From: Vulcanimicrobiota bacterium
GTDB lineage: Bacteria; Vulcanimicrobiota; Vulcanimicrobiia; Vulcanimicrobiales; Vulcanimicrobiaceae
Assembly (NCBI GenBank): GCA_963809255.1
Contig: CAWEIR010000003.1
Location: 759,049-823,048 of the forward strand
DNA: 64,000 nt
Reading direction: 5' to 3'
Below are positions 3,326 through 50,419 of this stretch, in pieces; the first letter of the stretch is position 1; every line of letters begins with the position of its first letter. The notes under the pieces were generated by a model, which was given only the letters and a program-made list of their open reading frames with translations, did not search any database and was not told where the DNA came from. A program made the translations under genes and the position numbers.

Positions 3326-3470
3326 GGCCAGGGGCCCGGGCGTCCATGCGGCGGGGCGTGCGAAGGAGGAGCGGAGGCAGGATGCCGGGAGCGACGACGA
3401 GCCGAGTAGCTTTTTCGCACGATGCGAAAAAGCGAGCGTCCCCGCAGCATGGACGCGCGGGCCCCTGGCC
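3326..3470. repeat. 145-nt structured imperfect palindrome, copy E1 (sigma-factor gene | alaS spacer)
   Basis: The 26-nt arms 3326-3351 and 3445-3470 are 24/26 complementary. The 93-nt core 3352-3444 is 85/93 identical without gaps to 14219-14311. A perfect inner 11-bp hairpin GCTTTTTCGCA/TGCGAAAAAGC lies at 3409-3433. Confidence 0.85.
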
Positions 3471-14130: not shown

Positions 14131-14192
14131 CTTTCTATACGTTCCTTACTAAAAGCGTGCGCGGTTCTAAAGAGGAGATTGAGCGGTCGGCT

Positions 14193-14337
14193 GGAGCGAG
14201 AGGCACACGCCGGTGCTCCGGGGCGTGTGAAGGAGGAGCGAAGCCAGGATGGCGAGAGCGACGACGAACCGAGTAGCTTTTTCGCTGGATGCGAAAAAGC
14301 GAGCGTCCCCGGGGCACCGGCATGTGCCTCTTGCTCC
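14193..14337. repeat. 145-nt structured imperfect palindrome, copy E2 (atpG | atpD spacer)
   Basis: The arms 14193-14218 and 14312-14337 are 23/26 complementary. The core 14219-14311 is 85/93 identical to E1. The inner hairpin lies at 14277-14301. The element starts 6 nt after the atpG stop. Confidence 0.85.
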
Positions 14338-14343
14338 AAGAGA

Positions 14344-16734: not shown

Positions 16735-16749
16735 TCATCAACTTTCTTA

Positions 16750-16912
16750 GGAGCCTGTAGGGTTATGGACATTTTCGGATTCGTCGTCGAGTTTTGTTCG
16801 AAGACGAGGCGCGATGAGGGAGCGGAGCCGTAGCTTCGTGACCGAAGAGCAACGAAGCTTTCGGACAAAAGACGACACGAAGACGGAAATGCGCCATAAC
16901 CCTACAGGCTCC
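16750..16912. repeat. 163-nt near-complete palindrome, copy E3 (atpH | atpA spacer), related central module
   Basis: Perfect 19-bp terminal inverted repeats GGAGCCTGTAGGGTTATGG at 16750-16768 and 16894-16912. The interior is an imperfect palindrome with a central 8-bp hairpin AGCTTCGT/ACGAAGCT (16832-16859). It shares the ordered blocks GATG..GGGAGCG..GAGCCG..TAGCTT with E1/E2. Confidence 0.85.
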
Positions 16913-17453
16913 CAGCCGTTGTGTGGAGTTGGCGGGCGAGAGCATCGAGGCGGCCGGCGACGGTCGCATCGATTAAGCGATCCCCCATCAGGAGGCGCAG
17001 GCCGCCGATGAGATCGGCGTTAACCCGTTGCGTGACTTCGAACTTTTTACCGTAGAGGCGCTCGAGTCTCTCGATTAAATCCCGATATTCGGCTGCGTCG
17101 AGCGCTCTTGCGGACTCCACGGCCAGGGTCTCGGCGCCGCGAGCGGCGCGCTCCAACGCAAGATACTCCTCGACGATCGTGCCGAGCAAAGCCTCGCGAC
17201 GTTTACGCACCAAGAGTAGGAGCGTGTGAAGCGCGACCGGGTCGATTCTCTCTTCAAAGGCCTGCGAAAGAACGCGCTCTTTCACGGGACGGTCGATTAC
17301 CGGCGCGACGAAAAAATCGTGGACTAATCCGTGCCGCCCTATCGCCTCTGCGACGGTCGCTAAATCGACGCCGACGCGCTTGACGACGCCGCGTTCCCGG
17401 GCTACGCCGAGCGCGGCAATTGCGTAGCGGCGCGCCAGCGTGCGGTTAACCAC
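16902..17453 (-). CDS. atpH: F1 ATP synthase subunit delta (OSCP)
   Basis: OSCP-like pattern RRYAIAALGVA...LLLLVRKRR...VNADLIGGLRLLMGDRLIDATV. GTG 17453 follows GAGGGG by 7 nt; the longest ORF starts at TTG 17468. The last codons and the TAG stop lie inside the E3 inverted repeat. Confidence 0.85.
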   Translation of the reverse strand: MVNRTLARRYAIAALGVARERGVVKRVGVDLATVAEAIGRHGLVHDFFVAPVIDRPVKERVLSQAFEERIDPVALHTLLLLVRKRREALLGTIVEEYLALERAARGAETLAVESARALDAAEYRDLIERLERLYGKKFEVTQRVNADLIGGLRLLMGDRLIDATVAGRLDALARQLHTTAGSL

Positions 17454-17949
17454 GGCCGATCCCCTCAAGCGAGCCGACGAAGCGTTCGACCAGGCGCGAA
17501 TCGAGCGCGGGATCGACCCGGCTCGCGGCGTCGCGACGCGCTATTTGCAGCGCCCGCTCCAAAAGTTCATCGCGAAGCCGCAGGCGGGCGGCCGCGCGCG
17601 CACGTTCCAACTCGCCGCCGGCATCGCGCAAGGCGCGTTCGCCAGCTTCGGTGGCATCTTTGAGGATCGTCTCGCGCTCGCGTTGCGCGTGAAGCTCCGC
17701 TCGCTGCTCGATCAGCTCGGCATCGCGTCGCGCGCTATCGATCTCCTCGCGCAAAGCGTCAAGGGCACCTCTCGCCTCGTCGCGGTGCCGCTCCGATTCC
17801 GCGATCTGCGCGTTGCTACGCCCCTGCGCGGCCATAACGACCGGCTGTATCCACTTGTTCCAGATGAAAACGAGCGCGCCGAGAAAGAGAATCGACGAAG
17901 CGACCTGACTCCAGATCGAGATCTCGAGATAAAGCCGTTCTTCGTTCAT
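17446..17949 (-). CDS. atpF: Fo ATP synthase subunit b
   Basis: 167 aa. One N-terminal TM helix followed by a long charged helix. ATGA overlap with the upstream b-prime gene. Confidence 0.85.
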   Translation of the reverse strand: MNEERLYLEISIWSQVASSILFLGALVFIWNKWIQPVVMAAQGRSNAQIAESERHRDEARGALDALREEIDSARRDAELIEQRAELHAQRERETILKDATEAGERALRDAGGELERARAAARLRLRDELLERALQIARRDAASRVDPALDSRLVERFVGSLEGIGRG

Positions 17950-48430: not shown

Positions 48431-49155
48431 GTCCCGACCGCGCGCGCCAAGTTTTCGTCATTTGCCGGAGTAAGCGAGATCAGTGCGGCCTCGGCCGCCG
48501 CTTGCTGCGCGGTTTTTTTCGAGGGCCCGTGCCCCTTGCCCACGAGCTTACCGTTGACGGTGACCCTGGAATGGAAGGCCGGGCGTTGCGGCGTGCCCCG
48601 ACTGGTCTCGCGGTACACGGGGGTGGCCGCCAAATGTTCCTGCGCGTAGTGCTGCAAGCGAGTCTTGGCGTCGAGCAACGCGTCCGCGGAGTGATCCAAC
48701 TGCTCGATGTGATACTTAACGACGAACGCGCGTGCCTTGTCGAGCCCGTAGCGCAGGTAGAGCGCGCCGACAAAAGCTTCGACGGCGTCGGCCAGCACCG
48801 ACGTATTATCGCTTCCGCCCGCGGCCCGCATTCCCGCCCCGAGCAGCGTGAGCTCTGAGAACCGTAGCCGTCGCGCCGTTCGGGCAAGCTGCGCGTCGTT
48901 GACGATGGCGGCTTTGCGCAACGTCAGCAATCCCTCGGACTCGTCGGCGAATTGCTCGAAGAGCCATCCCGCCGTGATGCAGCCGAGCACGGAGTCGCCA
49001 AGAAACTCCATTCGGTCGTTCGAGCTGCCGCCGCGCTCTTTTGCATAGCTCTGATGAACGAACGCCATTTCGAATACGCTTAATTCGTCGCGCTTGCGAA
49101 TGCCTGCAAGACGAAGCAGGGCGCGCAACCGCCGCCGATACGCTTCGCCGCTCAT
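48427..49155 (-). CDS. rnc: ribonuclease III
   Basis: Signature NDRMEFLGDSVLG and a C-terminal dsRBD (GPSKKTAQQAAAEAAL). Confidence 0.94.
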   Translation of the reverse strand: MSGEAYRRRLRALLRLAGIRKRDELSVFEMAFVHQSYAKERGGSSNDRMEFLGDSVLGCITAGWLFEQFADESEGLLTLRKAAIVNDAQLARTARRLRFSELTLLGAGMRAAGGSDNTSVLADAVEAFVGALYLRYGLDKARAFVVKYHIEQLDHSADALLDAKTRLQHYAQEHLAATPVYRETSRGTPQRPAFHSRVTVNGKLVGKGHGPSKKTAQQAAAEAALISLTPANDENLARAVGT

Positions 49156-49156
49156 G

Positions 49157-50419
49157 CTACGGTCCGGAACGAACCTTGCCGAGGACGATGACGCTGTTGT
49201 GGCCGCCGAAGCCGAACGAGTTCGAGAGCGCGACGCGAATCGGCGCGTGGCGCGCGACGTTGGGCACGTAATCGAGCCGGCATTGCGGATCGGGGAACTC
49301 GTAGTTGATCGTCGGCGGCATGATATCGTGGTACACGGCCAGCGCCGTCGCTACGCCTTCGATGCCGCCCGCGGCGCCGAGCGCGTGCCCGTGCATCGAT
49401 TTTGTCGAACTTACTCCGATTTTGGAGGCGTGCTCTCCAAAGCTTTTTTCAATCGCACTCGATTCGGCGGGATCGCCCATTGGCGTCGACGTCCCATGCG
49501 CGTTGATATAATCGACGTCCTCGGGGGCGATGCCGGCGCTTGCGAAGGCACGAGCGAAGGCCAAGCGGACGCCCCTGCCCTCTGGATCCGGCGCGACGAG
49601 ATCGTAGGCATCGGCCGATTGGCCGTAGCCGAACAGTTCGCAATAGATCTTGGCTCCGCGAGCCAGCGCGTGTTCGTACTCCTCGAGGACGAGGATCCCC
49701 GCGCCCTCGGCGAGGACGAATCCGTCGCGCTCGCGATCGAACGGGCGGCTCGCTCGGGCCGGATCATCGTTGCGGGTCGACATCGCTCGCATGGAACAAA
49801 AGCCGCCGATCGCCAGCGGCGATACCGTCGCCTCGCTGCCTCCGGCAATCATGGCAATGGCGTCGCCGTACGCAATGGCATTAAATGCAGTCGCGATGGC
49901 ATCATTGCCGCTCGCGCAGGCGCTCGCGGCCGCGAAGAACGGTCCCTGAAAACCGTAGGCCATCGAGATGTGCGCCGTCGCCGCGTTGGCCATCAGCATC
50001 GGAATGAAGAAAGGCGTCACCTTCGACCACGTTCCGTTTTCATTGGCTTTATCGGAGTTGAGCCAAAAGGTGATGATTCCACCAATGCCCGTCCCGACGA
50101 CGCCCCCGACTTGCTGCTTGAACTCTGGATTCTCGGGCAGCTTGGCATCCTCAATTGCTTCCCGTGCGGCAACAAACGCGAACTGCGTGAAGCGGTCCAT
50201 GCGGCGCGCTTCTTTGCGTCCGATGAGCTGCTCGGGATTCCACTCTTTTACTTCGCCCGCGAAACGCGTATCGAAGAGGCTGGCGTCGAAAGCCGTGATT
50301 GGAGCGATTCCGGATTCGCCGGCAATCAGGCGTCTCCAAAAATCCTCGCGGGTGTTTCCGACCGGAGTAACCGCTCCCAGGCCCGTCACGACGACTCGTC
50401 GGCGGGCAGGCGGCTGCAT
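49157..50419 (-). CDS. fabF: beta-ketoacyl-ACP synthase II
   Basis: Motifs RRVVVTGLGAVTP, active-site ASACASG, HGTSTPMGD and GHALGAAGG. ATG 50419 is preferred; the longest ORF starts at TTG 50434. Confidence 0.93.
   Translation of the reverse strand: MQPPARRRVVVTGLGAVTPVGNTREDFWRRLIAGESGIAPITAFDASLFDTRFAGEVKEWNPEQLIGRKEARRMDRFTQFAFVAAREAIEDAKLPENPEFKQQVGGVVGTGIGGIITFWLNSDKANENGTWSKVTPFFIPMLMANAATAHISMAYGFQGPFFAAASACASGNDAIATAFNAIAYGDAIAMIAGGSEATVSPLAIGGFCSMRAMSTRNDDPARASRPFDRERDGFVLAEGAGILVLEEYEHALARGAKIYCELFGYGQSADAYDLVAPDPEGRGVRLAFARAFASAGIAPEDVDYINAHGTSTPMGDPAESSAIEKSFGEHASKIGVSSTKSMHGHALGAAGGIEGVATALAVYHDIMPPTINYEFPDPQCRLDYVPNVARHAPIRVALSNSFGFGGHNSVIVLGKVRSGP

Follow-up and report, generated by a model that had tools for sequence, protein, structure and literature searches.

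In the window, by which we mean the whole stretch of 64,000 nucleotides from a Vulcanimicrobiota bacterium (genome G000) that was analyzed, atpH runs into a long palindrome, which contains its final codons and its stop, and this raises the question of whether an insertion re-terminated the gene or whether the repeat evolved over the gene's end.

The palindrome at the end of atpH and its family

The palindrome, referred to here as E3, occupies positions 16750-16912, is 163 nt long and imperfect, and carries perfect 19-bp ends. As stated in a preliminary description of this DNA, the left terminal inverted repeat GGAGCCTGTAGGGTTATGG (16750-16768, + strand) finds its exact reverse complement in the right terminal inverted repeat (16894-16912, - strand). 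Allowing for up to 3 mismatches, these are the only two matches to the 19-mer in the window, where 0 are expected by chance. The arms show a complementarity of 74% out to 53 nt, and single-strand folding gives -94.7 kcal/mol for the + strand (z -12.4) and -81 kcal/mol for the - strand (z -11.1); no strand is assigned to the element as a whole, and "+" denotes its better-folding strand. The gene for the F1 delta subunit, atpH (16902-17468, - strand, 188 codons), for which orthologues were detected in 39 of 41 relatives, has the 3' end ...ACG GCT GGG AGC CTG TAG, and the right repeat contains (GG)G AGC CTG TAG. The new end Gly-Ser-Leu-stop (16902-16913, - strand) follows the ancestral ...His-Thr-Thr-Ala, and Ser-Leu-stop, together with two bases of the Gly codon, is element sequence, so that the contribution of the right repeat to atpH was described correctly. 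Contigs derived from the short reads of three runs matched positions 16828/16883-17300 with zero differences and strains that are 2-2.5% diverged and come from other studies possess the same insertion and the same junction. This agreement excludes an assembly error.

A search of the genome for the 19-mer, which had been proposed as a check, reveals that it belongs to a family of sequences repeated in G000 and in its relatives. Four full-length copies of 163 nt with identities of 80-93% are present at unrelated loci in G000, and of 101 genomes from the family to which G000 belongs, 40 contain the element according to BLAST. With a covariance model built from 40 copies, 132 of 301 sampled genomes of Eremiobacterota were positive, and with the exception of two weak ones these positives belong to one family and account for 41 of the 100 genera sampled across the phylum. 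An alignment of 42 full-length copies of 160-165 nt from more than 20 genomes was used for the analyses described below. The terminal GGAGCCTGT is kept across the subfamily. E3 has no coding capacity, as no ORF is conserved among the copies and the ATG of the repeat is missing from most of them; the small ORFs within the element were rejected as candidates since start codon and frame vary between copies. E3 is short and non-coding, is bounded by terminal inverted repeats and duplicates TA, its copies are dispersed and polymorphic, and its ends are common with those of an autonomous element; it is a MITE. The E3-type MITE was previously undescribed, is found family-wide in the uncultured soil phylum Eremiobacterota (Vulcanimicrobiota), where Candidatus Cybelea are the nearest relatives, and has a candidate partner in the IS1182 family.

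Several variants of the element were also observed. With the same ends, there are elements of 274 bp (three copies, L090, in genome G048), of 221 bp with an extra insert and of 126 bp without the centre (L091/L092, in genome G044). Metagenome contigs contain a core-less form of the same type, in which position 16783/16786 is joined to position 16876. Mini-palindromes such as TA GGAGCCTGTAGGCTCC TA consist of just the two tips of the element between TAs and occur outside the window at G000 C3:726375-726394, C1:113545-113565, C1:157490-157512, and C2:874642-874662; they are probably collapsed copies that arose by deletion between short AGG repeats near each end. Also outside the window, at G000 C2:1294091-1294161, a tRNA gene is immediately preceded, at its 5' end, by an incomplete E3-type element that comprises the left half (model positions 17-88).

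The atpH-atpA junction with and without the element

In the closest relatives, G117 (95.8% nt identity in atpA) and G112, the two genes are connected by CAC ACA ACG GCC TAA GAAAGTTGATGA ATG, which corresponds to a 12-nt spacer and an empty site whose single TA is the beginning of the stop codon TAA. The junction in G000 reads CAC ACA ACG GC-TG[163 nt]TA AGAAAGTTGATGA ATG. At the atpH-atpA junctions of 29 other genomes from the genus, the order, and the class there was no insert, and the genes either overlap or are separated by a spacer of 7-54 nt. None of the AtpH proteins of the relatives ends in GSL. The empty site in the closest relatives and the ancestral stop TAA support a re-termination of atpH by insertion, which was one of the two possibilities considered in the preliminary description, whereas the other one, a repeat that evolved over the end of the gene, is refuted by the empty orthologous sites. 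More generally, a palindrome formed in place or a chance inverted repeat, which the position of E3 might suggest, would have to be reconciled with copies of 80-93% identity at unrelated loci, with the empty orthologous site and with a chance expectation of 0 for the 19-mer, and such an origin appears extremely improbable to us.

The atpA side of the insertion is preserved in its entirety. Between the element and the ATG of atpA (16734), the ancestral spacer (A)GAAAGTTGATGA (16735-16747, - strand) is identical to the spacer of G117 and intact, and the same is true for the adjacent TA (16748-16749), which is the copy of the duplicated target retained on this side. On the atpH side, ACGGCC-TA-GGAGCC is expected and ACGGC-TG-GGAGCC was observed, which means that one base was lost and that A was changed to G; compared with this expected junction, the second TA copy (16913-16914) has decayed to CA on the + strand, that is TG in mRNA sense. 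The MAG MFD06092.bin.1.223 (L114), which with 93.6% nt identity in atpA is less close than G117, displays ACGGCC TA GGAGCCTCCA TA AGAAAGTTGATGA at the same spot. Here a 10-nt remnant, GGAGCCTCCA, is located between two TAs, directly before AGAAAG, and the scar shows the predicted primary junction GCC-TA-GGAGCC, at which atpH stops with TA+G and the protein is unchanged. This remnant is either the scar of an excision or deletion or the trace of another, independent insertion into this stop codon and, accordingly, the site was either hit twice or hit once and then precisely lost in G117 and G112. The terminal repeat contains a second TAG (GGAGCCTGTAGG), and of the three frames leading into the element, two encounter a stop codon within 13 nt. 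Because this second TAG lies in the frame entered after the frameshift in G000, the frameshift was caught at once.

From these observations the following course of events can be proposed. A transposase of the IS1182 kind, acting in trans, would have moved the element by cut-and-paste into a TA, usually in the context C/T-TA-G/A, with duplication of the TA. At this locus, after the split from the nearest sampled sister species, the element would have entered atpH at the TA of its TAA stop codon, which was followed after 12 nt by the start of atpA. As the element begins with G, the stop codon would have been re-created (GCC TA|G) and AtpH would at first have been unchanged. Later, the TA copy on the atpH side would have lost one base and changed A to G, in an order that we infer, and the frame would have been extended by three codons (Gly-Ser-Leu) to the TAG within the repeat. 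In the resulting atp mRNA the element would be transcribed and would fold as a long hairpin, with the ribosome-binding spacer of atpA intact at its 3' foot. A metatranscriptome contig does extend from atpH into the element, in a data set whose contigs carry no strand and may include DNA. By joining its own feet, the hairpin would hold the stop of atpH next to the start of atpA once the RNA is folded, and this may be the reason why the insertion was tolerated; the insertion was presumably near-neutral if the hairpin keeps the two signals close in this way. The 19-bp perfect stem is a plausible substrate for RNase III, whose gene rnc is present in G000. No evidence in this analysis requires a host function of E3.

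Taken together, we are confident that E3 is a 163-bp MITE with IS1182-family ends that inserted into the TA of the atpH stop codon in the lineage of G000 and whose junction later decayed to GSL-stop, with the caveat that the atpH-side junction needs two extra mutations in order to fit a TA target. For annotation this means that three extra residues and the stop codon of an ATP synthase delta subunit derive from a transposon end.

Target sites and a candidate partner transposase

The preliminary description reported no obvious target-site duplication. This does not hold for the family, in which TA is duplicated, and at the atpH site one TA copy is intact and the other one is decayed, as described above. 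Among the 42 aligned copies, TA flanks the left side in 39, the right side in 34, and both sides in 33. The commonest context is CTA|..|TAG (22 copies), and TTA|..|TAA and mixed forms are present as well. Because the outer base varies symmetrically, it reflects a target preference and is not part of a 4-bp repeat; a 4-bp duplication (CTAG) was rejected, as TA is constant at non-CTAG sites, where the bases outside it are not the same on both sides. For the other three copies in G000, the joined flanks align uninterrupted in the sister genomes G117 and G112. Two of these copies provided exact junction pairs (L002 and L004, each compared to G117): the filled site GGGTATT-TA-[el]-TA-GCGGGCG corresponds to the empty site GGGTATT-TA-GCGGGCG, and CAGCTT-TA-[el]-TA-AATGACG corresponds to CAGCTC-TA-AATGACG, each with an exact duplication of TA. 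The reverse case was found as well, with a filled site in G117 (G117:C23:61943-62104, CCC-TA-[el]-TA-GCG) and an empty one in G000 at about position 49160 of the window (CCG-TA-GCA). This empty site (about 49150-49170) is located beside rnc (G000 C3:807526-808134). The filled and empty pairs amount to three clean TA duplications, to which the atpH site, with one TA copy decayed, is added as a fourth. As filled sites occur in both G000 and G117, the family has moved in both lineages since their split.

Stop codons are frequent targets. At 25 of the 42 copies, a flanking long ORF with high GC3 ends in TA plus the G of the element, and the second TAG within the repeat is used as stop codon in E3 and in one other copy (L017). 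Of the genes at the stop-codon copies, 14 run into the left end of the element and 12 into its right end, from which it is evident that orientation is random. Orientation relative to the replication strand appears mixed, as judged by eye from coordinates in two near-complete genomes. According to a crude census of G000, about 13% of the non-coding YTAR sites are at stop codons (761 vs 5033), and based on heuristic ORF calls and this crude gene census the enrichment has a binomial P of about 2e-12, or of 2e-6 if the true share were 25%. We read this enrichment as TA target choice plus selection, since an element whose first base is G rebuilds the stop codon as TAG when inserted into a TA target and is harmless there. 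Such a stop-rebuilding design may explain how elements of this type persist inside essential operons.

A candidate for the enzyme that moves E3 was obtained when the terminal 14-mer was searched for in 101 genomes of the family. Inverted pairs about 1.53 kb apart were detected in G070 (G070:C17:79336-80871) and in G051 (G051:C271:104-1636), delimiting TA-flanked long elements of 1.53 kb that begin with GGAGCCTGTAGGGTTTT. Their 455-aa ORF scores 342 bits (341.6) against NF033551, the NCBIfam model of the IS1182 family (cut-off 270), and also matches DUF772, DDE_Tnp_1_6, and DDE_Tnp_1 of Pfam. The ends of E3 (GGAGCCTGTAGGGTT) match those of these elements: its first 15 nt recur without a mismatch in their left ends, in G070 as well as in G051, and the agreement across the four ends amounts to 12-18 of 19 positions. 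The similarity between E3 and the 1.53-kb elements is limited to the first 15-18 nt, and their interiors are unrelated. On the basis of these shared ends of about 15-18 nt and of the shared TA flanks, E3 was most likely mobilized by an IS1182-type transposase. The partner transposase is present in only 5 of the 101 genomes and was not found in G000, so that the four copies of G000 are now stranded without a matching transposase. In G080 there is a relative of the transposase with 56% identity, with the ends CTAG|GAG...CTC|CTAG. At another locus (L089, G059:C1:1645799-1650886), an IS1182-type copy is split by an IS21-like gene pair (ORFs of 530 aa and 308 aa), and the span between the matching ends is 4.1 kb. 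Eight further elements share the centre of E3, the length of 161-164 nt and, mostly, TA flanks, and have variant ends (GTGCGCCTCG.., GCAGGCCTGTGAAAAA.., GTGCCTCCC..); in all but one of them, the first base is G. For the end type GCAGGCCTGTGAAAAA, no long partner was found in the 101 genomes, where only pairs about 163 nt apart were detected.

IS1182-linked, TA-duplicating MITEs are of an already known kind, which E3 joins. In Methanosarcina, IS1182-linked MITEs of 160-169 bp have been described (PMC3852290). Those associated with ISMac2 in Methanosarcina acetivorans (160 and 169 bp; PMC3852290) resemble E3 in their length of about 160 bp, in the lack of an ORF, in being multi-copy, and in their IS1182-family ends. 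However, their tabulated direct repeats are of 4 bp or 0 bp, compared to 2 bp (TA) in E3, they occur in a different host phylum and, unlike in these MITEs, the interior of E3 shows no relation to the IS and exceeds the ends in conservation.

Two other transposase types were weighed against the IS1182 partner. MITEs of the IS630/Tc1-mariner superfamily also duplicate TA and share with E3 a CTAG-like target preference, but no matching DDE_3 partner was found here: DDE_3 (PF13358) was absent from six of the seven genomes searched, including G000, and in the seventh (G044) it is represented by a 137-aa fragment with no matching end nearby. Since, in addition, the only long elements with E3 ends encode an IS1182-family transposase, we consider it very improbable that E3 belongs to the IS630/Tc1-mariner group. 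Likewise, ERIC/IRU and REP/REPIN sequences are imperfect palindromes in transcribed intergenic regions of operons, as is E3, and E3 is palindromic, intergenic, and multi-copy as would be expected of REP/BIME or REPIN-type palindromes that depend on a RAYT (Y1/HUH) transposase for their spread. Yet REPINs need RAYT, and Y1_Tnp (PF01797) gave no match in G000, whereas the same search was positive in 6 of 14 control genomes; REPINs make no target duplication, whereas E3 has one of 2 bp (TA) and has ends in common with a DDE-type IS. A RAYT-dependent origin can be given hardly any credence. ERIC sequences are unrelated to E3 and confined to enterobacteria.

Strand asymmetry, the conserved centre and neighbouring elements

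One property of the family is not explained by a plain double-stranded cut-and-paste model, namely the asymmetry between its strands. In all of the 42 copies the + strand folds better, by a mean of 25.5 kcal/mol as RNA and of 7.4 kcal/mol with DNA parameters, and the + strand is also the better folder in all eight of the variant-end elements. Within the predicted pairs, 230 cells are G·T and 14 are A·C, across many polymorphic positions. Pairing is kept in 97.9% of the cells and compensatory changes occur in 34 of 61 pairs, a number that was reached by none of 500 shuffles and that was unapproached when partners were slid by 1-3 columns. In-place homogenization of the arms could produce the same compensatory pattern without an RNA function. 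The centre is 95-100% conserved across genera and the arms drift with compensatory changes, which is the reverse of a textbook MITE.

The conserved centre (16813-16848, + strand) is defined by covariation and by conserved G and A positions. Although the central 8-bp hairpin of the preliminary description exists (16832-16839/16852-16859), covariation among 40 copies does not support it and favors in its place a 7-bp hairpin with the loop CGTA (16822-16828/16833-16839), by which a single long rod is continued. On the + strand, three tandem G·A/A·G pairs (16813-14/16847-48, 16816-17/16844-45, and 16820-21/16840-41) alternate with covarying Watson-Crick pairs, among them, in alignment A1, 67-101 (AU 29, UA 8, GC 3) and 70-98 (AU 18, GC 16), and the whole is capped by the hairpin 16822-16839. 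Two motifs considered for the centre were dropped: a hammerhead-like CUGAUGAG...GAA in the consensus, since E3 reads CCGAAGAG, has no stem II and Rfam is silent, and a d(GCGAAGC) mini-hairpin, since its heptamer covaries with a downstream partner. What is kept among the elements is a length of 161-164 nt, the TA-G termini, the rod-like fold, and the G·A-rich centre, and the arms, even the terminal 15 nt, change with compensation, with G·T tolerated on one strand only.

These features might indicate that E3 acts as a functional single-stranded nucleic acid, be it a structured RNA, such as a signal between atpH and atpA for the processing or stability of mRNA or an sRNA of its own, or an ssDNA hairpin as the actual substrate of a transposition that depends on structure. 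The consistent folding advantage of the + strand in both sets of elements, the excess of G·T over A·C cells, a centre that seems non-palindromic and closes on the + strand through three conserved tandem G·A pairs, and the conservation of this centre beyond that of the ends all speak for it, as do the RNase III encoded in G000 and the reported action of IS1272, an IS1182-family element, on stem-loops (PMC5678879, PMC4923244). However, the atp mRNA corresponds to the strand that folds less well, the + strand being antisense to it, the orientation relative to the gene hit at its stop codon is random (14 vs 12), the nearest sister species lack the element at atpH|atpA, and the related copies are not independent samples, so that part of the asymmetry is inherited. 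Moreover, a scan of the element for promoters and terminators found nothing, and no RNA run with the element was found among those listed; an intrinsic terminator was rejected because, in mRNA sense, UAAGAAAGUUGAUGA follows the hairpin and no terminator-like site was called. The Rfam search of E3 assigned no family, with the best match (SNOR75, E 4.8) reaching 16 bits where the gathering threshold is 50, and for ten other copies nothing was found at the element. On balance, a functional single strand in this general sense is unlikely. It is somewhat less doubtful, and is put forward here as a tentative reading, that E3 is a mobile hairpin selected as a single strand and not an ordinary MITE recognized by its sequence. 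Such a hairpin would fit an IS1182-type transposase that recognizes folded ssDNA or a cruciform, as proposed for IS1272; within the same reading, the element could alternatively act through its own RNA.

Two members of the IS1182 family are of interest in this respect, as their transposases belong to the family of the presumed E3 partner: ISPsy36 targets the palindrome GGCC (PMC8027508), and IS1272 targets stem-loops or hairpins (PMC5678879, PMC4923244). IS1272 differs from the E3 family, in which TA is cleanly duplicated at YTAR sites, in that its insertion produces no duplication and deletes the target hairpin. If the strand asymmetry of the E3 family reflects mechanism, it would offer a handle on substrate recognition by the poorly understood, reportedly hairpin-targeting transposases of the IS1182 family.

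A further comparison concerns the Correia elements (CREE/NEMIS) of Neisseria, whose RNA hairpins are substrates of RNase III and which undergo in-place inversion (PMC10969869). They are 100-160 bp long and co-transcribed with neighbouring genes, as E3 probably is in the atp operon. Correia elements duplicate TA. Their sequence is unrelated to that of E3 and no cognate transposase is known for them, whereas E3 has a candidate IS1182-type partner; in addition, no promoter or IHF site was found in E3. In-place inversion is seen here for the neighbouring element E2.

The window contains two other elements, E1 (3326-3470) and E2 (14131-14343), and E3 had been assigned to one family with them. Homology was not shown: in reciprocal nhmmer searches (E<=10 and E<=1) the profiles miss each other, the profile of E3 copies failing to detect E1/E2 at E<=10 and the profile of the E1/E2 core failing to detect E3. 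The remaining links are short shared blocks, the rod-like architecture, TA flanks, and one hybrid; exact TA flanks are found on one of four E1/E2-type copies (G000 C1:3343-3456). The hybrid, located outside the window at G000 C1:~81985-82166, combines E3-like, TA-flanked ends (GGAGTCCGTCGGGTTACGG) with an E1/E2-like centre (AGGAGCGCAGCCAGGATGGCGGAGCGACGAG), which suggests a modular mixing of arms and centres. With E2 between atpG and atpD and E3 between atpH and atpA, both long spacers of the atp operon, whose genes are otherwise tightly coupled, are insertions of mobile elements and not regulatory leaders.

In G112 (L105, G112:C63:89300-91000), the atpG-atpD junction contains no E2; its place is taken by some 300 nt that contain an ORF of roughly 100 codons. 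In G117 (L104, G117:C23:96200-97700), E2 is located at the same junction as in G000 (14186-14339 of the window) but in the opposite orientation over its entire length: of 145 positions, 128 agree when the two are compared as reverse complements and 95 when they are compared directly. The element seems to have been inverted in place between its own arms. The arms of E2 in G117 extend further outwards and contain, in inverted copy, the final codons of atpG (GCGTAGAGTGAGCTCTTGAAGCG ... CGCTTCAAGAGCTCACTCTACGC), so that part of what appeared to be a locus-specific arm is copied host flank.
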